From positions 1 to 11,723 of IMG/VR virus record IMGVR_UViG_2713896789_000019: a stretch of 11,723 nucleotides of DNA. One strand, written 5' to 3'. This DNA is from a virus (lineage: Duplodnaviria > Heunggongvirae > Uroviricota > Caudoviricetes). Made by a program: the position numbers and the translations under genes. Under the pieces are notes generated by a model. The model worked only from the letters and a program-made list of their open reading frames with translations. It was not told where the DNA came from and did no database searches. Shown piece by piece: positions 1 to 11,723 of this stretch (position 1 is the stretch's first letter; each line of letters opens with the position of its first letter).

Positions 1-906
1 CTAGTCTCCTCTGTTTGCTTGAGAGGTAGTGTGACGGTAATGGACCAGATATTTACTAACAACAGCATCCCTGCACTGAGATATAACTTCACGAAGGGTA
101 ATATTCAGAGCATCGCATTTCAGGTTAAGCGGAATAGCAAGTTTTGAACCGGTTTTTTCCTGAGTAATGTGCAACATGTCGTCCCATATATCAGAGAATT
201 TCAAATTGCAGATATCGCCTAAACGTTGTCCAGTAACAAGAGCAAGTAGCATGCCGCATTTTAAATAGGGCTGCCGTCTGCTTACGCTTTCAAATATTGC
301 CTGCCATTCGAGCAGTGACAATCTTTGGCGGTTTACTCGATTTCGCGGTTGTTTTGTTGCCTGCGCAGGGTTAAATCCTGGCGGAACATGTCCTGCGTGT
401 TGTGCTTCTTTGAAGACGTCGATCAACACCATTCTCACGACTTGCGCCATCCTGTTATGACCTTCAGCCTTTACAGCATCAATTATTTCGGCAATATCAA
501 GTGCGGTAATATCCTTGAGGTGTTGCATTCCACAATGCTCACGGAAAAGACGAATGGGTTTGCCTTTTTGCCGATAGGAGTTGGGTCTTAGTTCATTATG
601 TTGCAGCCTGTCCTCCTGGATAGAAATATATTTATCAAGCCATTCTGTCACCGTAATGTCTGAGCGCCTGCCTTTCATTCTTTCCAGACGCTCATTGACG
701 CTTAATATTTGTCTGGTACGTTGTTCAGCAATAATGGTATTTGCTTCAGTAGCAACTTGTTTTGCTTCATTCTCATCAGTTCCTAAGCTATGAAAACGAC
801 CGGATAGTGGATGTTTGTATTGCCAATATACCTTTCCGGTTCGCTTATCTAATTTGCAATATAAATTGGGTATAGAGATTTTGTGAGATCGGGGTCTAGC
901 AGCCAT
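1..906 (-). CDS. intD: Prophage tyrosine integrase (lambda Int family); the ORF ends about 70 aa before the expected catalytic His-x-x-Arg / His / Tyr region, so it is probably truncated or continues out of frame beyond the window edge
   Basis: 301-aa ORF with ATG at 904-906 (minus). The translation aligns by eye with lambda Int through the Arg box (LALVTGQRLGDI vs lambda LAVVTGQRVGDL) and Lys box (QEKTGSKLAIP vs QSKTGVKIAIP). It ends at ...HYRHTTSQANRGD before any HxLR or catalytic Tyr. The stop codon TAG (rc of 1-3) sits exactly at the window edge. Symbol inferred from DLP12 context (emrE/ybcK downstream), not verified. Confidence 0.8.
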   Translation of the reverse strand: MAARPRSHKISIPNLYCKLDKRTGKVYWQYKHPLSGRFHSLGTDENEAKQVATEANTIIAEQRTRQILSVNERLERMKGRRSDITVTEWLDKYISIQEDRLQHNELRPNSYRQKGKPIRLFREHCGMQHLKDITALDIAEIIDAVKAEGHNRMAQVVRMVLIDVFKEAQHAGHVPPGFNPAQATKQPRNRVNRQRLSLLEWQAIFESVSRRQPYLKCGMLLALVTGQRLGDICNLKFSDIWDDMLHITQEKTGSKLAIPLNLKCDALNITLREVISQCRDAVVSKYLVHYRHTTSQANRGD

Positions 907-1132
907 CAGCGATTATCCGTTGGAGTTTTGGGTTTGCGTTTATTGGGAGTTGCGGTTCTGCAAGCGTTCCTACAAAACGGGAATTTCGGTCAATCATCCA
1001 GTAGCGACCAACTTTTATAGCGGGTGGGGCCATCATTTTCCCTTGCGCGTATTTTTTCAGAACTCGCTCACTTGGTGCTAAGTCCCCAAATTCTTCTTTA
1101 GCCCAGTCCTGTAAAGTGATTAGTCGAGACAT
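896..1132 (-). CDS. xis: Excisionase (lambda Xis-like)
   Basis: 78-aa ORF immediately upstream of int, overlapping the int start by 11 nt as in lambda xis-int. Strong SD AGGAGG 4 nt upstream of the ATG at 1130-1132 (minus). N-terminus MSRLITLQDWAKEE...PPAIKVGRYWM resembles lambda Xis (MYLTLQEWNAR...PPPVKDGREYLF). Confidence 0.8.
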   Translation of the reverse strand: MSRLITLQDWAKEEFGDLAPSERVLKKYAQGKMMAPPAIKVGRYWMIDRNSRFVGTLAEPQLPINANPKLQRIIADGC

Positions 1133-1271
1133 TTGTCCTCCTCTTAGCTGCTGAGGGAGTTTGTGACCGATATATCTGACATGATATTAAGCTCATGGCA
1201 GGTACATCTCTTGACTGGTCATAGAGATAAATTTAATGCTGAGTAATGCAGTATTGAATTTATCAATTTTT

Positions 1272-1511
1272 CTATTTCCTGCGTATGGCACGTAACTTCT
1301 TAATGTGTTCTGCCGTTTCGATCTCTTCTGCTATTCGATCTGCATCAGCTTTATTCACAGGTTCAAAGTCATGATTAAAGCGGAACATGCTGGCGATACA
1401 TGTTCTGCCTTTTCGGATGTAGTGAACTTTGTTGTGGGTAGAACGCAGGATTTTGCAGGGAGTGCCGTGGTGGTCGACGTACCAGGTGTTAGGAAAAATG
1501 ATTCTGAACAT
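1272..1511 (-). CDS. Hypothetical small basic protein (79 aa), His/Cys-containing; function unknown
   Basis: ORF with a good SD (GAGGTG, 5-nt spacer) before the ATG at 1509-1511 (minus). Same orientation as the upstream cargo genes and xis-int. No family recognised by eye. Confidence 0.45.
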   Translation of the reverse strand: MFRIIFPNTWYVDHHGTPCKILRSTHNKVHYIRKGRTCIASMFRFNHDFEPVNKADADRIAEEIETAEHIKKLRAIRRK

Positions 1512-1558
1512 TTTTACACCTCAGTTGGACGATGTTGAAATTTGCTGCTTTGAAGCCA

Positions 1559-1792
1559 TCACAGTCCCCATTGTTTGTTCTTAAGTTCGATCTCCTCCTG
1601 GCAACTTGCACAAGTCCGACAACCCTGAACGGCCAGGCGTCTTCGTTCATCTATNNNNNNNNNNNNNNNNNNNNNNNNNNNNNNNNNNNNNNNNNNNNNN
1701 NNNNTGAATTGTTGGTTAATACGCTTGAGGGTGAATGCGAATAATAAAAAAGGAGCCTGTAGCTCCATGATGATTTTGTTTTTCATGCTCAC
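1559..1792 (-). CDS. Hypothetical ORF interrupted by the N-gap; frame continuity and true length unknown
   Basis: ATG at 1784-1786 (minus) with AAGGAA 8 nt upstream, about 50 nt downstream of the DGQHR gene stop. The reading frame runs into the N run at 1655-1704. The C-terminal piece contains a CxxCxxC cluster (QGCRTCASCQEE). Confidence 0.25.
   Translation of the reverse strand: MSMKNKIIMELQAPFLLFAFTLKRINQQFXXXXXXXXXXXXXXXXXIDERRRLAVQGCRTCASCQEEIELKNKQWGL
1655..1704. other. Run of 50 N: assembly/scaffold gap or masked sequence of unknown true length
   Basis: Directly visible in the sequence. Confidence 0.99.
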
Positions 1793-1843
1793 CGTTCCTT
1801 AAAGACGCCGTACAGCATGCTGATATGAGACAATGTTGATTCA

Positions 1844-2908
1844 TTAAGTTGTTTCCAGACTTCCTTTGGTAAAAGCTTGTATCAGTCTGTTTGCTGCTGC
1901 TTTCTGCGCTGCCACATTGGCAATAACAGATAGTTTTTCCTGGCTGGCTTTCGTGCAGATCCCCGCCCAGTTATCCATCAGAAAAAAATCCTCTCTTTCT
2001 GCAGAGCTGGTAGTTGCACATAGTTTTTCGATCATAGAAGTTATTTCTGCGATGGAATGATTAACCATCATCTGTTGAACCGCAAAACCGAAAGCGTTAA
2101 TCATTACTCCATGGAACTGAATATAATCGCGCTTGTACGTAGCGTGGTGTACACCATGTCGGATTGAGTCAATCTGAGTTAGTGTAATCCATGCCTCCCA
2201 GACAGATTCTATATATCCCATTTCAAGTTGTTGATTGCCGTTCCTAGCGAACTTTGACGTTGCATCAGTGAGTGCCTTGAAACTCACCCACATATTACTT
2301 TTTAATGGCACTACGTTGTGTTCAAAATCGGTTATATCGGCAAATACAGTATGTTGGGTCAGGAAGGATATCATTCCCTGAGCAATATCATCCCGGCCGT
2401 TATACGCCATATTGATGGTCGCTGATGGCTTAGAAACGTTGTTATTTATGTCCGAAAAGAACTGCTGCCGGGTTTTTAGCGGCAGATTCATTGTAAGCAT
2501 CATGGGAACCATGAGCGTTGATGGGGAACTTCGGCAAAATATCTCAATGCCAGCTGCACGATGTTGACCATCAAAAAGTTTTATTTCGGCGTCGAGGGGA
2601 ATTCTGGCTATACCAACATTTGTGTTGCCAAACGGTACAAATTCTATATTCGAATCACAGTTACCTACGAGAGGGGGAATGATAAAAGGCTCATTTCTTG
2701 AGTCTGCGTTAGTGAGATAATTTAAAAATTTTCGTACTCGATTTGGATTAATTTCTCGCTGAGAGCGTTCCAGTGTATGGCCGTAATTATCTGAAGCGAG
2801 GAAACGAGCCAGCGATCTTCCTGGTATGGTAAGGAAGAGTGTAACAGTACCACCCTGTACACCTTGCGATGCCGGAAATTCGAATGAATGATTACCAACC
2901 TGACTCAT
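1844..2908 (-). CDS. DGQHR-motif protein, DndB-like (ParB/sulfiredoxin-type) family; standalone, no dndCDE-like genes nearby
   Basis: 354-aa ORF with a strong SD (AGGAGG, 4-nt spacer) before the ATG at 2906-2908 (minus). Contains the literal motif ...EIKLFDGQHRAAGIE... that names the DGQHR domain of DndB-type proteins. GC is visibly lower than the flanking lambda-like O/P genes. Confidence 0.8.
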   Translation of the reverse strand: MSQVGNHSFEFPASQGVQGGTVTLFLTIPGRSLARFLASDNYGHTLERSQREINPNRVRKFLNYLTNADSRNEPFIIPPLVGNCDSNIEFVPFGNTNVGIARIPLDAEIKLFDGQHRAAGIEIFCRSSPSTLMVPMMLTMNLPLKTRQQFFSDINNNVSKPSATINMAYNGRDDIAQGMISFLTQHTVFADITDFEHNVVPLKSNMWVSFKALTDATSKFARNGNQQLEMGYIESVWEAWITLTQIDSIRHGVHHATYKRDYIQFHGVMINAFGFAVQQMMVNHSIAEITSMIEKLCATTSSAEREDFFLMDNWAGICTKASQEKLSVIANVAAQKAAANRLIQAFTKGSLETT

Positions 2909-3016
2909 ATATCCTCCTGTTTGTTATTTATCTTCTCAGCCAGCCGCTGTGCTTTCAGTGGATTTCTGATAACAGAAAGGCCGGGAAATACCCAGCCTCG
3001 CTTTGTAATGGAGTAG

Positions 3017-3271
3017 ACGAAAGTGATCGCGCCTAACGATATCCGTCTGATGCGTGAACGTGATGGACGTAACCACCGCGACATGTGTGTACTGTTCCGC
3101 TGGGCCTGCCAGGACAACTTCTGGTCCGGTAACGTGCTGAGTCCGGCCAAACTCCGCGACAAGTGGACCCAGCTCGAAATCAACCGGAACAAGCAACAGG
3201 CTGGCGTGACAGTCGGCAAACCAAAACTCGACCTGACAAACACTGACTGGATTTACGGGGTGGATCTATGA
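3017..3271 (+). pseudogene. O: Replication initiator protein O, C-terminal fragment only (N-terminal origin-binding part absent)
   Basis: The frame opens after a TAG at 3014-3016. The translation ends ...SPAKLRDKWTQLEINRNKQQAGVTVGKPKLDLTNTDWIYGVDL, which matches the C-terminus of lambda O as I recall it. Its stop overlaps the P start (ATGA) as in lambda. Confidence 0.75.
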
Positions 3272-3969
3272 AAAACATCGCCGCACAGATGGTTAACTTT
3301 GACCGTGAGCAGATGCGTCGGATCGCCAACAACATGCCGGAACAGTACGACGAAAAGCCACAGGTACAGCAGGTAGCGCAGATCATCAACGGTGTGTTCA
3401 GCCAGTTACTGGCAACTTTCCCGGCGAGCCTGGCTAACCGTGACCAGAATGAACTGAACGAAATCCGCCGCCAGTGGGTGCTGGCTTTTCGGGAAAACGG
3501 GATCACCACAATGGAACAGGTTAACGCTGGAATGCGCGTAGCCCGTCGGCAGAATCGACCATTCCTGCCATCACCCGGGCAGTTTGTCGCCTGGTGCCGG
3601 GAAGAAGCATCCGTTACCGCCGGGCTGCCAAACGCCAGCGAGCTGGTTGATATGGTTTACGAGTATTGCCGGAAGCGCGGGCTGTATCCGGATGCAGAGT
3701 CTTATCCGTGGAAATCAAACGCGCACTACTGGCTGGTTACCAACCTGTATCAGAACATGCGGGCCAATGCGTTGACTGACGCGGAATTACGGCGCAAGGC
3801 TGCCGATGAACTGTCCTGTATGACCGCACGAATTAACCGTGGTGAGGCTATACCTGAACCAGTAAAACAACTTCCTGTCATGGGCGGTAGACCTCTAAAT
3901 CGTGCACAGGCTCTGGCGAAGATCGCAGAAATCAAAGCTAAGTTTGGGCTGAAAGGAGCAAGGGTATGA
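3268..3969 (+). CDS. P: Replication protein P (DnaB helicase loader), lambda-type, apparently full length (233 aa)
   Basis: The translation MKNIAAQMVNFDREQMRRIANNMPEQYDEKPQVQQVAQIINGVFSQLL...KAKFGLKGARV is near-identical to lambda P as recalled. Same O-P-ren synteny and overlapping stops/starts. Confidence 0.9.
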   Translation: MKNIAAQMVNFDREQMRRIANNMPEQYDEKPQVQQVAQIINGVFSQLLATFPASLANRDQNELNEIRRQWVLAFRENGITTMEQVNAGMRVARRQNRPFLPSPGQFVAWCREEASVTAGLPNASELVDMVYEYCRKRGLYPDAESYPWKSNAHYWLVTNLYQNMRANALTDAELRRKAADELSCMTARINRGEAIPEPVKQLPVMGGRPLNRAQALAKIAEIKAKFGLKGARV

Positions 3970-4268
3970 CGGGCAAAGAGTCAATTATTCATTACCTGGG
4001 GACTCATAAGAAATTCTGTGCGCAGGACGTTGCCGCGGTAACAGGCGCAACGGTAACCAGCATAAATCAGGCTGCGGCTAAAATGGCGCGGGCAGGAATC
4101 CTAGTCGTTGATGGTAAGGTCTGGCGAACGGTGTATTATCGGTTCGCTACCAGAGAAGAATGGGAAGGAAAGGTGAGCACGAATTTGATTTTTAAGGAGT
4201 GTCGCCAGAGTGCCGCGATGAAACGGGTATTGAGGGTATATAAAAGAACATCAATGGGTACACAATGA
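3966..4268 (+). CDS. ren: Ren protein (lambda ren-like, Rex-exclusion escape)
   Basis: 100-aa ORF MTGKESIIHYLGTHKKFCAQDVAAVTGATVTSINQAAAKMARAGILVVDGKVWRTVYYRFATREE..., closely similar to lambda Ren. Start overlaps the P stop (GTATGA). Confidence 0.85.
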   Translation: MTGKESIIHYLGTHKKFCAQDVAAVTGATVTSINQAAAKMARAGILVVDGKVWRTVYYRFATREEWEGKVSTNLIFKECRQSAAMKRVLRVYKRTSMGTQ

Positions 4269-4335
4269 TGAAACAGGTGAGTTGAGTTCAAACTGTAGTA
4301 CAATTCTCTCCAGTTTGAACAGGAAAGAATATGCT

Positions 4336-4668
4336 ATGAATCCTTATATTTATCTTGGTGGTGCAATACTTGCAGAGGTCATTGGTACAACCTTAATGAA
4401 GTTTTCAGAAGGTTTTACACGGTTATGGCCATCTGTTGGTACAATTATTTGTTATTGTGCATCATTCTGGTTATTAGCTCAGACGCTGGCTTATATTCCT
4501 ACAGGGATTGCTTATGCTATCTGGTCAGGAGTCGGTATTGTCCTGATTAGCTTACTATCATGGGGATTTTTCGGCCAACGGTTGGACCTGCCAGCCATTA
4601 TAGGCATGATGTTGATTTGTGCCGGTGTGTTGGTTATTAATTTATTGTCACGAAGCACACCACATTAA
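4336..4668 (+). CDS. emrE: Small multidrug resistance (SMR) family efflux transporter EmrE
   Basis: 110-aa product MNPYIYLGGAILAEVIGTTLMKFSEGFTRLWPSVGTIICYCASFWLLAQTLAYIPTGIAYAIWSGVGIVLISLLSWGFFGQRLDLPAIIGMMLICAGVLVINLLSRSTPH matches E. coli EmrE, including the essential Glu14 context and four TM segments. The ORF-track start at 4282 is an upstream in-frame extension; the real start is the ATG at 4336. Confidence 0.95.
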   Translation: MNPYIYLGGAILAEVIGTTLMKFSEGFTRLWPSVGTIICYCASFWLLAQTLAYIPTGIAYAIWSGVGIVLISLLSWGFFGQRLDLPAIIGMMLICAGVLVINLLSRSTPH

Positions 4669-4698
4669 AAATAATTTGTTTTTAAACGACTAAAATAT

Positions 4699-4737
4699 GG
4701 AGGCTCGTATATTTATATGGGCCTCGTTTTATGCTTT
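4699..4737 (+). terminator. Possible weak intrinsic terminator downstream of emrE
   Basis: Short GC stem (GAGGC ... GCCTC) followed by TTTTATGCTTTTT. The stem is short and the loop large, so this is weak. Confidence 0.3.
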
Positions 4738-4923
4738 TTGTTAATGTCTTTAGTTTTTATTCATTCTTTTGTGCTTTCAAGATTATGGTGTAAGAAAATT
4801 GCAATACGATTATTGTTGTATATTCAAGATAATGTGACCTTAATTGTCTTTTTAAATAAAAATTAAACAAAAATCATATCTCACCACTAAGGTTTATAAA
4901 AGCATACTTTAGCAGGTGTCACC

Positions 4924-6450
4924 ATGAAAAAAGCCATAGCATATATGCGATTTTCATCACCAAGTCAGATGTCTGGTGATTCATTAAACCGCCAGAGAAG
5001 GCTTATTACTGAATGGCTAAAGGTAAATAGTGATTATTACCTTGATACCGTAACGTATGAAGATTTGGGGTTAAGCGCATTCAATGGAAAGCATGCACAA
5101 TCAGGAGCTTTTTCGGAATTTTTAGATGCTATAGAACATGGTTATATATTGCCAGGGACTACATTGTTAGTTGAAAGTCTGGACAGACTTTCAAGAGAAA
5201 AAGTCGGTGAGGCGATTGAGCGTCTGAAATTGATTTTGAATCACGGTATTGATGTTATAACTCTTTGCGATAATACAGTCTATAATATTGACTCATTGAA
5301 TGAGCCATATTCATTAATAAAAGCCATACTTATAGCACAAAGGGCAAATGAAGAAAGCGAGATAAAGTCAAGTCGGGTTAAATTATCATGGAAGAAAAAA
5401 CGGCAGGATGCACTGGAGTCAGGCACGATTATGACGGCGTCTTGTCCGAGATGGCTCTCATTGGATGACAAAAGAACGGCTTTTGTTCCAGACCCCGACA
5501 GGGTGAAAACTATTGAGCTAATTTTTAAACTCAGGATGGAAAGGCGCTCATTGAATGCAATAGCCAAGTATTTAAATGATCATGCTGTAAAGAATTTCTC
5601 AGGAAAAGAAAGTGCATGGGGACCTTCTGTAATTGAAAAATTATTAGCGAATAAAGCTCTGATAGGTATATGCGTACCTTCATATCGTGCAAGAGGTAAA
5701 GGAATAAGTGAAATCGCTGGCTATTATCCCAGAGTCATATCAGATGATTTGTTTTACGCTGTGCAGGAAATTCGGTTGGCACCTTTTGGTATTAGCAATA
5801 GTAGCAAAAATCCTATGTTGATAAATCTACTTCGAACAGTTATGAAGTGCGAGGCTTGTGGTAATACCATGATTGTTCATGCGGTATCTGGAAGTTTGCA
5901 TGGCTATTATGTTTGTCCGATGAGAAGACTGCATCGATGTGACAGGCCATCAATAAAGAGAGATTTGGTTGATTATAATATCATTAATGAGTTGCTTTTT
6001 AATTGTAGTAAAATCCAACCAGTTGAAAACAAGAAAGATGCTAATGAAACTTTAGAGTTGAAAATTATTGAGCTCCAGATGAAAATTAATAATTTAATTG
6101 CTGCATTATCTGTTGCGCCTGAAGTTACCGCTATAGCAGAAAAAATCAGAGTATTAGATAAGGAATTACGAAGGGCTTCTGTATCATTAAAAACTTTGAA
6201 GAGTAAAGCGGTGAGTTCACTTGGTGATTTTCATGCTATTGACTTAACCAGTAAAAATGGGCGAGAGCTATGTCGTACACTTGCCTATAAAACATTCGAA
6301 AAAATCATAATCAATACAGATAATAAAACCTGTGATATCTATTTTATGAATGGCATTGTTTTTAAACACTATCCTTTAATGAAAACAATATCCGCCCAGC
6401 AGGCGATAAGTACTCTCAAATATATGGTTGATGGTGAGGTTTATTTTTGA
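4924..6450 (+). CDS. ybcK: Large serine recombinase (resolvase/invertase-type catalytic domain plus recombinase and zinc-ribbon domains)
   Basis: 508-aa ORF with SD AGGTG 5 nt upstream. N-terminus AIAYMRFSSPSQ fits the serine-recombinase catalytic motif (R-x-S-x-x-x-Q). A Cys cluster CEACGN...YYVCP...HRCD fits the zinc ribbon of large serine recombinases, and a coiled-coil-like segment follows. AT-rich gene next to emrE, as in DLP12. Confidence 0.85.
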   Translation: MKKAIAYMRFSSPSQMSGDSLNRQRRLITEWLKVNSDYYLDTVTYEDLGLSAFNGKHAQSGAFSEFLDAIEHGYILPGTTLLVESLDRLSREKVGEAIERLKLILNHGIDVITLCDNTVYNIDSLNEPYSLIKAILIAQRANEESEIKSSRVKLSWKKKRQDALESGTIMTASCPRWLSLDDKRTAFVPDPDRVKTIELIFKLRMERRSLNAIAKYLNDHAVKNFSGKESAWGPSVIEKLLANKALIGICVPSYRARGKGISEIAGYYPRVISDDLFYAVQEIRLAPFGISNSSKNPMLINLLRTVMKCEACGNTMIVHAVSGSLHGYYVCPMRRLHRCDRPSIKRDLVDYNIINELLFNCSKIQPVENKKDANETLELKIIELQMKINNLIAALSVAPEVTAIAEKIRVLDKELRRASVSLKTLKSKAVSSLGDFHAIDLTSKNGRELCRTLAYKTFEKIIINTDNKTCDIYFMNGIVFKHYPLMKTISAQQAISTLKYMVDGEVYF

Positions 6451-6561
6451 GTAATAATCACTTTTTCAACCGTGCTATAGTAAGAAAGTTAGGTAAGTAC
6501 AATAAAATTATCTATCCTGAACGAAGCGTCCTGAGCTATGGTTTTACTATAGGGACTGCCA

Positions 6562-6861
6562 ATGGATGCTGGCGTTCTCGTTCTAGCAGTTCAACAATAC
6601 CCAATCACAAAACAATTCACTGATAACAAACTTTGTGCACGTGCTTGGTTATGGCGAGCAGGTGATGTGATGTTAACTGCCTGCCAGAACGTTACTCCAC
6701 TACTTCAGGTTGCGGAGCACCGCGAAGCCGGCCGCTTTACTTCTATCGAGCAAGAATATCCCCAGATACTCAACAGAGCGCGAGCAATCCTCGCCAGAGA
6801 AACGGCACATGTAAAATTCCAGCCGTGGCTGGATGATAAGTGGAGTCGAGTGTTACCATAA
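6562..6861 (+). CDS. Hypothetical protein (99 aa), unknown function
   Basis: ORF followed by a hairpin plus T-tract terminator. No convincing SD before the ATG at 6562 and no recognisable family, so it may be a gene remnant. Confidence 0.4.
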   Translation: MDAGVLVLAVQQYPITKQFTDNKLCARAWLWRAGDVMLTACQNVTPLLQVAEHREAGRFTSIEQEYPQILNRARAILARETAHVKFQPWLDDKWSRVLP

Positions 6862-6904
6862 TTCCGTCAGAATCTGTTCCAATAAAGTCACTAGTTAGAA
6901 ATAC

Positions 6905-6943
6905 TGCCAGCATTCTACGATGACGGAAGTGCTGGCATTTTTT
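6905..6943 (+). terminator. Rho-independent terminator downstream of the 99-aa ORF
   Basis: Perfect 8-bp stem TGCCAGCA (6905-6912) / TGCTGGCA (6930-6937) followed by TTTTTT (6938-6943). Confidence 0.5.
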
Positions 6944-7061
6944 GGGTAATATGCGAGTCCATTTCATAAAATACGGGTGCTGTAAACTGGACGATATAAT
7001 CTAAAATATACCATTACCAGTAGCGTTCAAATCGCTATGTGCCGATACGGATAAAATTATA

Positions 7062-7090
7062 TTGATTGTGCACATACCTTATTGGATATT
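7062..7090 (+). promoter_or_regulatory. Putative sigma70 promoter for the 169-aa ORF
   Basis: TTGATT (7062-7067), 17-nt spacer, GATATT (7085-7090), about 30 nt upstream of the ORF. The -10 is imperfect; by-eye call only. Confidence 0.3.
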
Positions 7091-7119
7091 ACTGAGGGGT
7101 ATTTATATAAGGTGTAACG

Positions 7120-7629
7120 ATGATGTGGAACTTTGACAGTGCCGACTTAAGTGCAATAGCAGCAGGTATTTCTGCGTTTGGCACATTAGCCGCAGCGGGG
7201 TCGGCGCTTGCAAGTTGGTACACGTCAAAAAAAGCGCTGCAGCTACAAAATAGAGTTTACCTTTATGAGTCTTTAAAGGCTTGCGCTGAGAGAGCCAATT
7301 CATCAGCTAAAGATAAGCGCGGATCTGAATGGAGCGTTAATGATGCAGCGGATATCATCAGGTGCCTAGTACGGGCGATGGAGATCATCAAGCAGGATAG
7401 CCAGCAGAAAGAAGGTAATCAGGCATTAATGTTGAAACAGTACTTTGTTAATCTGCTAATAATGGAACTGTACGAGGAAGTTCATAACGGTGATGCGGCT
7501 GATTCTGTTTTTAAAAGTACGGAACCTACACAAGTACTTGATAACTTATGGAGCAAATGGCAGGAGGCTATAGCTTTTTTTGATATTTGGAATTACCCAG
7601 TTGCGACTGAGGAAGACTTGGCAGACTAA
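7120..7629 (+). CDS. Hypothetical protein with N-terminal membrane anchor (169 aa); orphan prophage cargo
   Basis: SD AAGGTG 5 nt before the ATG at 7120. Residues about 10-33 (LSAIAAGISAFGTLAAAGSALASWY) form a hydrophobic helix followed by a charged soluble domain. Located in an AT-rich block between its own upstream terminator and the NinB-like fragment. Confidence 0.6.
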   Translation: MMWNFDSADLSAIAAGISAFGTLAAAGSALASWYTSKKALQLQNRVYLYESLKACAERANSSAKDKRGSEWSVNDAADIIRCLVRAMEIIKQDSQQKEGNQALMLKQYFVNLLIMELYEEVHNGDAADSVFKSTEPTQVLDNLWSKWQEAIAFFDIWNYPVATEEDLAD

Positions 7630-7823
7630 TTTTCAGCACATTTGATTTCCAATAATCAACCAGCCATAATCATGCCATTGGGGCCTGAACAACTCCGGTG
7701 ACTTCTGCGCTAAACGGGGACGTTTATGCGCACATACAATCCAACCTCTCTTCTCCATTCACAGATGCAGAAATGCACCTGCGATATTTTGCATCCAGCG
7801 TTTGATCTCTGCGGAGGTGAAGC

Positions 7824-8078
7824 GTGAACCTCCCACAAGATGGTATCAAATTGCATCGCGGTAACTTCACCGCTATCGGTCGGCAGATCCAGCCTTATCT
7901 GGAGGACGGCAAATGCTTTCGCATGGTGCTTAAACCGTGGCGCGAGAGACGCAGTCTTTCCCAGAATGCACTCAGCCACATGTGGTACAGCGAAATCAGT
8001 GAATACCTCATCAGCAAGGGTAAAACGTTCGCCACTCCAGCTTGGGTATCCGCACCGGCGGGCGCGTGCTGGCGGTAA
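7824..8078 (+). pseudogene. ybcN: NinB-like (Orf-family recombination mediator) gene, 5' fragment only; reading frame continues out of frame into J-derived sequence
   Basis: GTG start with GGAGGTG SD. The translation carries the R-x-RSL-SQN-x-x-x-H-x-W signature (RERRSLSQNALSHMW), comparable to lambda NinB (ERNRSLDQNRKLWACL). After about 74 aa the frame reads [11 protein letters not shown], which is J sequence in the wrong frame. Symbol by position in a DLP12-like layout, unverified. Confidence 0.55.
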
Positions 8079-8872
8079 ACAGCCAGACCCGGACGCTGAC
8101 GCTCGACCGTGAAATCACGCTGCCATCTTCCGGCACCACGCTGATAAGCCTGGTTGACGGGCAGGGGAGTCCGGTCAGCGTGGAGGTTCAGTCCGTCACC
8201 GACGGCGTGAAGGTGAAAGTGAGCCGTGTTCCTGACGGCGTTGCTGAATACAGCGTATGGGGGCTGAAGCTGCCGACGTTGCGCCAGCGCCTGTTCCGCT
8301 GCGTGAGTATCCGTGAGAACGACGACGGCACGTATGCCATCACCGCCGTGCAGCATGTACCGGAAAAAGAGGCCATCGTGGATATTGAGAACACCCCTGA
8401 CGGCATGCAGAGTCAGGTGCTGCTGGCGGCGGACAGGATTGCGATGGTTAATCCTGCGAATGGCAACACAAAACCGATGTTTGTTGGTCAGGGCGATCAG
8501 ATATTCATGAACGACGTGTTCCTGAAACGCCTGACGGCCCCCACCATTACCAGCGGTGGAAATCCACCGGCATTTTCCCTGACACCGGACGGAAAGCTGA
8601 CCGCTAAAAATGCGGATATCAGTGGCAGTGTGAATGCGAACGCCGGGACGCTCAACAATGTCACGGTAAATGAAAACTGTACGATTAAGGGCATGCTGGA
8701 GGCGACTCAGGTCAGAGGTGACTTCGTTAAAGCTGTATCCAAATCATTCCCGAAACAGGCTGGTACGTGGGGTAATACGGAAACACCAAACGGGACGGTT
8801 ACAGTCACCATCAGCGATGATCATAACTTTGACCGTCAAATCATTATTCCGCCCATTATCTTTAACGGAATA
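8024..8872 (+). pseudogene. J: Tail tip / host specificity protein J, 3' fragment (lambda J-like), lacking the N-terminal part and probably an internal segment
   Basis: The frame opens after a TAA at 8021-8023. The translation [31 protein letters not shown]...[53 protein letters not shown] and later [48 protein letters not shown] closely match two parts of lambda J as recalled. Homology ends near 8870 and the frame then reads stf sequence out of frame until a stop at 9010. Confidence 0.8.
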
Positions 8873-8873
8873 G

Positions 8874-11723
8874 CGTATAGCGATCCGGGAAGTGGTAATA
8901 ACCGATGCTGCAGGCTCAGCACGTGCCGCCAGCACGTCAGCCGGACAGGCCGCGTCGTCGGCTCAGTCAGCGTCTTCCAGCGCAGGAACGGCATCGACAA
9001 AGGCCCGTGAAGCAGCAAAAAGTGCTGCTGCTGCAGAGTCCTCAAAAAGCGCGGCAGCTACCAGTGCCGGTGCGGCGAAAACGTCAGAAACGAATGCGGC
9101 AGCGTCACAACAATCAGCAGCCACTTCTGCATCCGCCGCGACCACGAAGGCGTCAGAAGCAGCCACCTCAGCCCGGGATGCGGCGGCCTCAAAAGAGGCA
9201 GCGAAATCATCAGAAACGAACGCATCATCAAGCGCCAGTAGTGCCGCTTCCTCGGCAACGGCGGCAGGCAATTCCGCGAAGGCGGCAAAGACGTCTGAGA
9301 CAAACGCCAGGTCTTCTGAAACGGCAGCGGGACAGAGCGCCTCGGCTGCGGCAGGCTCAAAAACAGCGGCTGCGTCGTCTGCCAGTGCCGCGTCAACAAG
9401 TGCCGGGCAGGCCTCAGCCAGTGCCACCGCCGCCGGAAAATCGGCAGAAAGCGCCGCATCGTCTGCTTCAACAGCCACAACGAAGGCTGGCGAAGCCGCT
9501 GAACAGGCCAGCGCAGCAGCGAGGTCTGCATCCGCAGCGAAGACATCCGAAACGAACGCGAAAGCCTCGGAAACCAGTGCAGAATCCTCAAAAATGGCAG
9601 CTGCATCGTCCGCCAGTTCGGCGGCGTCATCGGCATCATCTGCGTCTGCTTCAAAAGATGAGGCGAGCAGACAGGCATCAGCAGCGAAAGGCAGCGCCAC
9701 GACAGCATCCACGAAGGCGACAGAGGCAGCTGGCAGTGCGACGGCGGCATCTCAGAGCAAAACTACTGCTGAATCCGCTGCGACCCGTGCGGAAGCTGCT
9801 GCTGATCGTGCTGAAGAGATTGCCGGTGCAGTTGCGATGGAAGACGCAAGCCTTACAACTAAAGGTGTTGTGAAACTTAGCAGTGCTGTTGATAGCACCA
9901 GTGAATCGCTGGCCGCAACGCCAAAAGCAGTTAAAGCAGCCAATGACAATGCGAATAGCAGGGTGCCATCTAACCGAAAAGTTAACGGAAAAGCACTGAC
10001 TGCGGATATAACATTAACGCCGAAAGATATTGGTACTTTAAATTCAGTAACGATGTCTTTCTCTGGCGGGGCTGGGTGGTTCAAACTGGCTACGGTTACC
10101 ATGCCACAAGCGAGTTCCATCGTTTACATCGCATTGATTGGTGGCGCTGGTTACAACGTCGGTTCCCCACATCAGGCAGGCATTTCAGAACTGGTTCTAC
10201 GAGCAGGCAATGGAAACCCCAAAGGAATTACCGGGGCTTTGTGGAAGCGTACAGCCGTCGGATTAACGAATTTCGCCTGGATCAACACATCCGGCGATAC
10301 ATATGATATTTACGTTGAGATTGGCAATTATGCGACGAGTGTAAATATCCATTGGGATTGTACTGCAAATGCGTCAGTTTCTGTTTATACCTCGCCAACA
10401 TATTCAGCGAGTAAGCCTTCCAGCGTTACCTATGGTGTTGTTTATACGATGTATAGCTCACATCAGAAACCTACACCATCAGATATTGGAGCACTGCCAA
10501 CAACCGGAGGAACAGTTTCAGGTCCGTTGTCTGTTACAGGTGGATTAACTGGTTCATTGAATGGTAATGCAAGTACAGCCACGAAATTGCAGACGGCAAG
10601 ATCTATCGGTGGAGTTGTTTTCGACGGTTCTGCAAATATTAACCTTCCAGGTGTAAACACTACGGGTAATCAGAACACCACTGGTAATGCTGCAACTGCT
10701 ACAAAACTCCAGACTGCAAGAAAAATATCCGGTGTTCCATTTGATGGTTCCAAAGATATTACTTTAACCGCCGCGCATGTGGCTGCTTTTGCCAGAAGGG
10801 CAACGGATACATATGCCGATGCGGATGGTGGCGTTCCCTGGAATGCCGAATCAGGCGCTTACAATGTCACCCGCTCTGGCGACAGCTATATTCTGGTTAA
10901 CTTCTATACCGGAGTCGGAAGTTGCCGGACCCTGCAGATGAAGGCGCATTACAGAAATGGTGGTCTGTTCTACCGTTCTTCAAGAGACGGTTATGGTTTT
11001 GAGGAAGGCTGGGCAGAAGTTTATACCTCGAAAAATCTTCCACCAGAAAGCTACCCAGTCGGCGCACCAATCCCGTGGCCATCAGATACCGTTCCGTCTG
11101 GTTATGCCCTGATGCAGGGGCAGACTTTTGACAAATCTGCTTACCCGAAACTTGCAGCCGCTTATCCGTCAGGCGTGATCCCTGATATGCGTGGCTGGAC
11201 GATTAAGGGCAAACCTGCCAGTGGTCGGGCCGTATTGTCTCAGGAACAGGACGGCATTAAATCGCACACCCACAGCGCCAGCGCATCCAGTACGGATTTG
11301 GGGACGAAAACCACATCGTCGTTTGATTACGGAACCAAATCCACGAATAACACCGGGGCGCATACCCATAGTATTAGCGGGACCGCAAATAGTGCCGGTG
11401 CGCACCAACACAAGAGTTCCGGTGCATTTGGTGGCACGAACACGAGCATTTTCCCTAATGGTTATACCGCGATTTCAAATCTAAGCGCGGGGATTATGAG
11501 CACAACAAGCGGTAGTGGCCAGACTCGTAATGCAGGGAAGACATCATCAGATGGTGCTCATACCCACTCGCTGTCCGGCACTGCTGCAAGCGCAGGCGCA
11601 CATGCACATACTGTCGGTATTGGTGCTCATACGCACTCCGTTGCGATTGGCTCACACGGACACACCATCACCGTTAACGCTGCTGGTAACGCGGAAAACA
11701 CCGTCAAAAACATCGCATTTAAC
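8874..11723 (+). CDS. stf: Side tail fibre protein (lambda Stf / StfR-like), 5'-truncated and running off the 3' end of the window
   Basis: The frame opens after a TAG at 8871-8873 and stays open to the window end (950 codons). The translation ...[21 protein letters not shown]...[21 protein letters not shown]...LAATPKAVK... and the C-terminal [71 protein letters not shown]...[25 protein letters not shown] matches lambda/Rac side tail fibre including the His-rich GAHxHS repeats. The first possible start is the GTG at 8892. Not in the ORF track because there is no in-window stop. Confidence 0.85.
9000..9760 (+). repeat. Low-complexity Ala/Ser/Thr-rich coding repeats within stf (at least four copies of K-[TS]-SETNA plus degenerate ASxASxA units)
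   Basis: Repeated nucleotide units such as aaaacgtcagaaacgaatgcggc / aaatcatcagaaacgaacgcatc / aagacgtctgagacaaacgccag / aagacatccgaaacgaacgcgaa. GC-rich GCN/TCN codon runs create long stop-free frames on both strands. Confidence 0.7.
10560..10770 (+). repeat. Two tandem copies of a roughly 36-aa tail-fibre repeat unit (GN[AS][10 protein letters not shown].I.GV.FDGS..I.L) inside stf
   Basis: Translation [29 protein letters not shown] ... [29 protein letters not shown]; the nucleotide units are about 120 bp apart. Confidence 0.6.

Follow-up and report, generated by a model that had tools for sequence, protein, structure and literature searches.

We analyzed a window of 11,723 nucleotides (nt) from a Caudoviricetes virus (IMG/VR record IMGVR_UViG_2713896789_000019, positions 1 to 11,723) and describe a gene at its positions 1844 to 2908 whose product, intact and full-length, belongs to the DGQHR/DndB branch of the ParB/sulfiredoxin (Srx) superfamily. 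The clade to which this protein belongs, PHROG 7901, is distinct, phage-borne and independent of the dnd genes, and the gene itself is optional cargo in the early-left (pL) accessory region of Enterobacterales temperate phages. To our knowledge, the only form in which DGQHR proteins have been described is DndB, which represses the DNA-phosphorothioation operon. What is new here is best described as a DndB-type protein that has parted from phosphorothioation and is encoded in a phage early operon. On balance, we think it somewhat probable that this dnd-independent phage cargo acts as an early-made, nucleoside triphosphate (NTP)-gated DNA-binding switch; the parts of this reading that concern identity and context are near certain, and the mechanism stands at about even chances. 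The gene and its start signal are:

1844 to 2908, minus strand: DGQHR/DndB-family gene, 354 amino acids (aa), ATG start, with a predicted N-terminal ParB/Srx-fold domain and a C-terminal helical domain.
2913 to 2918, minus strand: Shine-Dalgarno sequence AGGAGG, 4 nt 5' of the ATG of the DGQHR gene, read directly from the sequence.

A sequence-only reading of the window had proposed a DndB-like protein of 354 aa with a literal DGQHR motif and a strong Shine-Dalgarno sequence, and each of these points held. FDGQHRAAGIE is present in the translation, with DGQHR at residues 113 to 117. The family match is not spurious: Pfam DndB (PF14072) scores 158.2 bits against a cut-off of 29.1 (E=3.8e-46), and the TIGR03187 DGQHR domain scores 188.8 bits against a cut-off of 58.85. 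DndB, a modification-module model, is the only PADLOC model that matches the protein (4e-37). Residues 1 to 353 align to positions 1 to 353 of the 355-position profile of PHROG 7901 (E=7e-216), which is annotated as unknown function. In RefSeq the protein is WP_000084449.1, "DGQHR domain-containing protein," and an identical protein is annotated in hundreds of Escherichia coli genomes. This generic annotation in RefSeq and PHROG is already known, and orphan ParB-fold proteins on mobile elements are a recognized phenomenon; a survey of ParB-fold proteins noted how commonly prophages and plasmids carry orphan ParB-like genes (PMC12704722). We found no literature study of PHROG 7901 or the DGQHR prophage clade.

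The closest characterized protein is DndB (DptB of Salmonella enterica Cerro 87; the E. coli dndBCDE island), a DNA-binding repressor of dndBCDE (PMC4507180). Both proteins match PF14072 and TIGR03187, they are 354 and 361 aa long, and they are collinear over residues 5 to 284, where BLASTP against DndB of the E. coli dndBCDE island gives 23% identity (E=8e-26). They share the R-x-Q-R, D-G-Q-H-R and Q-x-F-x-D-x-N motifs, and Q18, R48, Q50, R51, Y64, D113, Q115, R117, Q149, F151, D153, N155 and Y169 are invariant from the PHROG 7901 clade to canonical E. coli DndB. The score against the DndB equivalog model TIGR03233 (106.9 bits) did not reach its threshold of 328.

Predicted structure is consistent with this placement. 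The AlphaFold2 monomer model, with a mean predicted local distance difference test (pLDDT) score of 81, consists of an N-terminal alpha/beta domain and a C-terminal helical domain; the former is predicted to have a ParB/sulfiredoxin fold with a GxxR-type nucleotide pocket, and Foldseek agrees. No solved structure matched by sequence. The earlier proposal was of a ParB/Srx-type DNA-binding or nuclease-like protein; the fold is upheld, and Pfam yields DndB alone and no HNH, DUF1524 or other nuclease domain. SspE, DndI, BrxU, GmrSD and DpdB likewise contain a ParB/Srx NTPase module with a D-G-Q-x-R motif. In these proteins, however, the motif is DGQQR, and all but DpdB add a C-terminal HNH/DUF1524 nuclease. 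The combination that defines GmrSD, SspE, DndI and BrxU (a DUF262 DGQQR N-terminal domain with a DUF1524/HNH C-terminal domain) is absent from the DGQHR protein, as is that of DpdB (DGQQR with adjacent dpdA and dpdC), there being no TGT-like gene nearby. The protein differs from the DUF262-type enzymes and DpdB in carrying DGQHR and in having neither a nuclease domain nor a dpdA partner.

Relatives of the gene occur across the Enterobacterales, and more distant ones beyond them. A word-indexed search returned 247 clusters, of which the best 120 are 53 to 73% identical and span Escherichia, Salmonella, Klebsiella, Enterobacter, Citrobacter, Serratia, Cronobacter, Hafnia, Erwinia and others; every named cluster is labelled "DGQHR domain-containing protein." Functional phages carry the gene, among them Salmonella phages SPN1S, SPN9TCW and SPC32H/N (65% identity) and several Klebsiella phages (62%). 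When 1.84 billion representatives were searched exhaustively with a profile, no more than 816 clusters reached E<=1e-3, and a dozen or so of these were full-length with strong similarity. Relatives at intermediate distance (30 to 60% identity) come from Pluralibacter, Xenorhabdus, Buttiauxella, Vibrio, Shewanella, Rheinheimera and Aeromonas; they sit in runs of small genes on the same strand, several with integrases, and those in Xenorhabdus, Vibrio, Shewanella and Rheinheimera occupy similar prophage contexts. The clade is under strong purifying selection, with a ratio of nonsynonymous to synonymous substitution (dN/dS) of 0.07 to 0.10 where synonymous divergence is unsaturated. Among 5,426 complete E. 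coli genomes, 284 have the gene; all copies are at least 99% identical, coverage of the gene is 80% or more in 282 of them, and each of the 59 full-length rows listed bears a coding-sequence product name.

Longer relatives gave no functional hint in the form of fused domains: 10 proteins of 430 to 661 aa yield only the DndB domain in Pfam, and the same is true of many metagenomic relatives of 430 to 660 aa. Vibrio phage PS14A.1 (L006, 6989 to 8461) encodes a 490-aa protein in which an N-terminal DGQHR domain (33% identity) is followed by an uncharacterized C-terminal extension of about 200 aa, and about 20 related Vibrio phages of 83 to 85 kb share this protein. A distant DndB-like gene (31% identity) in Pseudoalteromonas phage KB12-38 (L007, 1 to 8553) has as neighbors two phosphoadenosine phosphosulfate (PAPS)-reductase-like genes, two methyltransferases (one of the C5 type) and a ligase, and the group may form a phage DNA-modification cluster.

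PADLOC and Pfam scans of the other open reading frames (ORFs) in the window found no dnd, dpd or restriction gene, as the sequence-only reading had said, no other defense gene and no parA. No dnd neighbors were seen in about 130 loci, of which the IMG/VR part was clustered with recurrent neighbors named rather than searched with Dnd references. BLASTP with E. coli DndC, DndD and DndE and with DptFGH found nothing in 40 genome loci that included the mid-distance relatives. Annotated phage loci list no dnd genes, and phage genomes of 38 to 44 kb carry the DGQHR gene alone. Unlike DndB, then, the protein is encoded in a phage early operon and never beside dndCDE in the loci examined. Across the E. 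coli genomes, dndCD is present in 207 of 5,426 and a chimeric query matches 481 (the union); the DGQHR gene and dndCD occur together in 10 genomes against 10.8 expected, in a sample whose genomes are not phylogenetically independent and in which dnd variants are detected only within about 80% identity. There is thus neither enrichment nor avoidance between the two in E. coli. Nor did we find a universal partner gene of any kind: neighbors vary by sub-lineage and include DUF1317, an HTH_ParB protein, DUF3560, PerC-like and HTH proteins, and DUF550. Within the E. coli dndBCDE-dptFGH island, dndE and dptH flank a second DGQHR gene (L013, 8108 to 9268), which appears to be split in two, with pieces annotated "DGQHR domain-containing protein" and "DndB."

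These data bear on the idea that the protein either serves as the displaced regulator for a dnd operon at another site in the genome or is simply a partition ParB. Such a view could draw on the name "DndB" given by Pfam and PADLOC and on the ParB-like fold. We rejected the displaced regulator on the co-occurrence arithmetic and the small phage genomes: 274 of the 284 carriers have no dndCD, an overlap equal to chance, phages of 38 to 44 kb have the gene without dnd genes, and the TIGR03233 cut-off is not reached. The partition alternative is countered by the absence of a ParBc (PF02195) or HTH_ParB (PF17762) match in Pfam, of anything closer to a ParB-like profile than phrog_1033 at E=0.011, and of parA in the window; compared with the ParB-CTPase-fold switches (ParB, KorB and PadC) and orphan ParB-like proteins, the DGQHR protein also has no ParA-binding motif context and no parS. 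We give this pair of explanations a very small chance. The protein is not a dnd-operon regulator, not a partition ParB and not a GmrSD/SspE-type nuclease.

Homology to DndB could instead serve mimicry, in which the phage protein binds the host dndBCDE operator, or Dnd or Ssp proteins, and so disarms phosphorothioate-based immunity. Homology across nearly the full length would suit such a role, an early-operon position resembles that of lambda Ral and Gam, and the target exists in hosts, with Dnd in 207 of 5,426 E. coli genomes and in Salmonella (PMC4507180). Against this stand an identity of 23%, a score far below the DndB equivalog cut-off, the absence from the window of any match to the DndB operator TACGN10CGTA (taken from PMC4507180), and co-occurrence with dndCD at the level of chance, as calculated without phylogenetic correction. 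Moreover, repression of the modification genes would be expected to leave DndFGH restriction unrelieved within one infection cycle. We consider anti-defense by mimicry improbable.

The other features in the part of the window around the gene are:

1 to 906, minus strand: lambda-type tyrosine integrase, cut by the window edge (Arm-DNA-bind_1 and Phage_integrase).
896 to 1132, minus strand: excisionase (PF07825; annotation in NCTC9100).
1272 to 1511, minus strand: DUF4222 gene, 79 aa (PF13973, E=1.4e-19).
1559 to 1704, minus strand: TraR/DksA-type zinc-finger gene, the lambda orf73 analogue (WP_000763364.1 in NCTC9100 and FORC 064; PF01258; blastn coordinates).
1742 to 1766, minus strand: intrinsic-terminator-like hairpin, GGAGCTACAGGCTCC then TTTTTTATTA (consensus scan; same sequence in NCTC9100).
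2905 to 3084, minus strand: DUF1317 (lambda orf60a-like) fusion ORF, 59 aa (PF07026, 80.3 bits, profile positions 8 to 49).
3034 to 3035, no strand: deletion junction (blastn against NCTC9100; annotation of the NCTC9100 and RM10410 loci).
3035 to 3271, plus strand: remnant of replication protein O, C-terminal part (annotated as an incomplete replication protein in NCTC9100 and RM10410).
3268 to 3969, plus strand: P, intact (PF06992).
3966 to 4268, plus strand: ren, downstream of P.

The DGQHR gene lies between xis and the O remnant, as noted earlier, in an interval that also holds the DUF4222 gene, the TraR/DksA-like gene and the DUF1317 fusion ORF. The same reading had taken this for the lambda immunity and recombination slot, with the gene in place of exo/bet/gam, N or cI/cro, and here the comparison with related prophages gave a different answer. 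In 28 IMG/VR prophage loci with a 99 to 100% identical gene, the order is nearly always bet-exo-DUF1317-DGQHR-TraR and then either DUF4222 or an Ea22-like gene; contigs that extend far enough go on to xis and int. Intact lambdoid carriers thus keep bet and exo directly upstream. Because DUF1317 is the counterpart of lambda orf60a, which is annotated DUF1317 on the lambda reference map, and the TraR-like gene is the counterpart of orf73, the DGQHR gene occupies the lambda exo-xis slot on the pL-transcribed strand, replacing orf63 and orf61. In lambda, orf73 is TraR-like and the exo-xis genes are expressed early from pL (PMC8614690). The gene shares this slot, and presumably pL-early expression, with orf60a, orf63, orf61, orf73 and ea22; it differs in having no sequence relationship to them and in encoding 354 aa, compared to 60 to 70 aa for the lambda ORFs that it replaces. 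The gene is present in just 3 of the 65 prophage loci that have a related exo gene, which bears out the suggestion that it is variable cargo.

The window copy has been left behind in a defective e14-like prophage from which pL, N, the immunity region, bet and exo are missing. The window is 99.9 to 100% identical to E. coli chromosomes, and in strains NCTC9100 and FORC 064 the element adjoins icd, the e14 attachment site. There the order is int-xis-DUF4222-TraR/DksA-DGQHR-DUF1317-exo, abutting a truncated O that is followed by P, ren, emrE and a ybcK-like recombinase. Relative to NCTC9100, 677 bp are missing from the window, comprising the lambda-type exo and the first 9 codons of DUF1317, and strain RM10410 has the identical junction. 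The N-terminus of the DUF1317 fusion ORF (WP_045148846.1 in RM10410) is new sequence produced by this deletion, antisense to the O remnant. Loss of the immunity region is a separate deletion of the defective prophage, and the 677-bp deletion further removed exo. A run of 50 undetermined bases (1655 to 1704) hides the 5' part of the TraR-like gene and replaces 137 real bases (L004/NCTC9100, 7652 to 7788), so that coordinates to its left are offset by 87 bases from the real genome.

GC content had also been offered as a sign of horizontal acquisition. The DGQHR gene is indeed lower in GC (0.429) than the O remnant and P (0.55), as had been stated. The argument for separate acquisition fails, and we rejected it, because the entire int-xis arm is equally low (0.43 for int and 0.446 for DUF4222).

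Elsewhere in the window, a low-GC block (0.37 to 0.41) at 4282 to 6450 lies between ren and tail-fiber remnants; it carries emrE (small multidrug resistance efflux) and a 508-aa large serine recombinase annotated ybcK, and is a mosaic of pieces from different prophages. A 169-aa ORF at 7120 to 7629, hypothetical in related genomes, has no Pfam or PADLOC match. The tail-fiber region includes a GC-rich stretch (0.61) at 8900 to 9750 with long overlapping ORFs on both strands and no detected tandem repeat; one of these, at 8963 to 9712, is a 249-aa minus-strand ORF rich in Ala and Asp that is a RefSeq hypothetical protein. Beyond the right end of the window, NCTC9100 (L004, 19452 to 22525) encodes an AAA-family ATPase and McrC, a McrBC-like type IV restriction pair that directly follows the tail-fiber assembly gene of the e14-like element at icd in the closest genomes.

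Signals around the gene suggest when it would be expressed. A consensus scan of the window found no sigma-70-like promoter upstream of the gene on its coding strand. The start codon overlaps the stop codon of the upstream DUF1317 fusion ORF (ATGA), and the terminator-like hairpin (1766 to 1752, then a T-run) lies about 80 nt past the DGQHR stop, before the TraR-like gene. The gene is translationally coupled to its upstream neighbor and, in intact phages, inside the pL early operon. The absence of a promoter of its own, together with the coupling and the terminator, fits reading within the antiterminated pL transcript of intact phages. Judged from gene order, this position points to expression at infection or induction rather than in a quiescent lysogen.

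This timing weighs against classical prophage-encoded exclusion, in which a protein made by the lysogen would sense or attack incoming phage DNA as a ParB/DUF262-type NTPase resembling SspE, DndI, BrxU or GmrSD. An exclusion function was raised in the sequence-only reading, and the ParB/Srx NTPase module is shared with those proteins. Yet the protein has no HNH/DUF1524 or other nuclease domain, PADLOC matches it to the DndB modification-module model alone, the gene is coupled into an early operon with no promoter of its own found, and phages competent for the lytic cycle hold it at the same operon position. We regard a lysogen-made exclusion or defense function as unlikely.

Another possibility is that the protein assists or targets a DNA-modifying enzyme, such as a phage DNA methyltransferase. 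The model for this is DpdB, an ATPase that DpdA requires (PMC10164549). Among 41 distinct members with enough flanking sequence, a DNA methyltransferase from one of four unrelated families is encoded no more than two genes downstream in 19, and upstream in none; in SPN1S an MT-A70 gene overlaps the DGQHR stop. The control comparison fails to support a specific link, however, and we rejected it: a methyltransferase also lies in the exo-int interval in 42 of 62 related loci without DGQHR, so the adjacency is a property of the region. In addition, the E. coli type (the window and all 284 E. coli copies) has no adjacent methyltransferase, and the motif of DpdB is DGQQR (PMC10164549), not DGQHR. 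We give this explanation little chance. The 42 lambdoid loci (within L095 to L173) encode orphan methyltransferases of the MT-A70, phage Dam (PF05869), N6_N4 and C5 types, several as tandem pairs.

Our preferred reading is an early-made, nucleotide-gated switch. Like DndB and other ParB-fold switches, the DGQHR protein probably dimerizes. The dimer would bind ATP or GTP through a pocket formed by the DGQHR, RSQRE and QxFxDxN motifs and would also bind DNA, to a degree set by its nucleotide state. In an intact phage the protein would be made on the pL transcript within minutes of infection or induction, and its target may be DNA or a DNA-bound host factor. It would then serve the phage early on, as an accessory in regulation or against restriction, and not as an exclusion protein made by the lysogen. 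Biochemical precedent comes from a ParB-fold protein survey in which a DndB-like protein bound ATP and GTP (PNAS 2025, PMC12704722; bioRxiv 2025.10.10.680097), and ATP is described as modulating DNA binding and regulation by DndB (Xia et al. 2019, as cited in PMC11662687). Because the exo-xis region modulates the lysis-lysogeny decision (PMC8614690), a role as a developmental regulator is also plausible.

Several points weigh against this switch. Nucleotide binding, dimerization and DNA binding are suggested by homology at 23% identity and by a monomer model, and we found no experiment on any clade member in the literature. The most conserved loop, residues 156 to 169 (NNNVSKPSAxINMAY), is modelled with low confidence; the C-terminal helical domain has no convincing match among solved structures, which leaves its activity open. 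The proposed timing derives solely from gene order, and a consensus scan could miss internal promoters. The window copy, having neither pL nor a promoter that we could find, may be silent.

That last point can be taken further, in that the window copy could be a silent relic that is intact only through the youth of the defective prophage and contributes nothing to its host. Deletion of pL, N, the immunity region and exo would favor this, as would the lack of any promoter-like site 5' of the gene in its coding orientation. With all 284 E. coli copies at 99% identity or more, their intactness is a poor guide to selection in this setting. Conversely, 282 of the 284 copies span at least 80% of the gene, the strong Shine-Dalgarno sequence and the coupling to the DUF1317 fusion ORF are retained, and read-through from the antisense strand of O/P is possible. 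We view the silent relic as a substantial minority possibility. It concerns expression of the window copy and is independent of the function of the family.

We speculate, at low probability, that temperate phages captured a clade of DndB-type NTP switches that acts as an early effector on host DNA-based immunity, or on host or phage transcription, through nucleotide-gated DNA binding. If true, this would be a new class of phage counter-defense or developmental regulator built on the ParB/DndB fold. For annotation, the labels "DndB" and "DNA sulfur modification protein" on such phage genes are no evidence of phosphorothioation. The DGQHR gene would be a reasonable candidate for experiments rather than a surprise to a specialist. 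Our analysis delimits a separate DGQHR clade that is phage-borne, under strong purifying selection, located in the poorly understood exo-xis region and without dnd linkage. Defining its activity would add a function to the exo-xis region and widen the repertoire of ParB-fold nucleotide switches on mobile elements, and it could uncover a means by which phages counter immunity based on DNA modification, or a regulator of such immunity.

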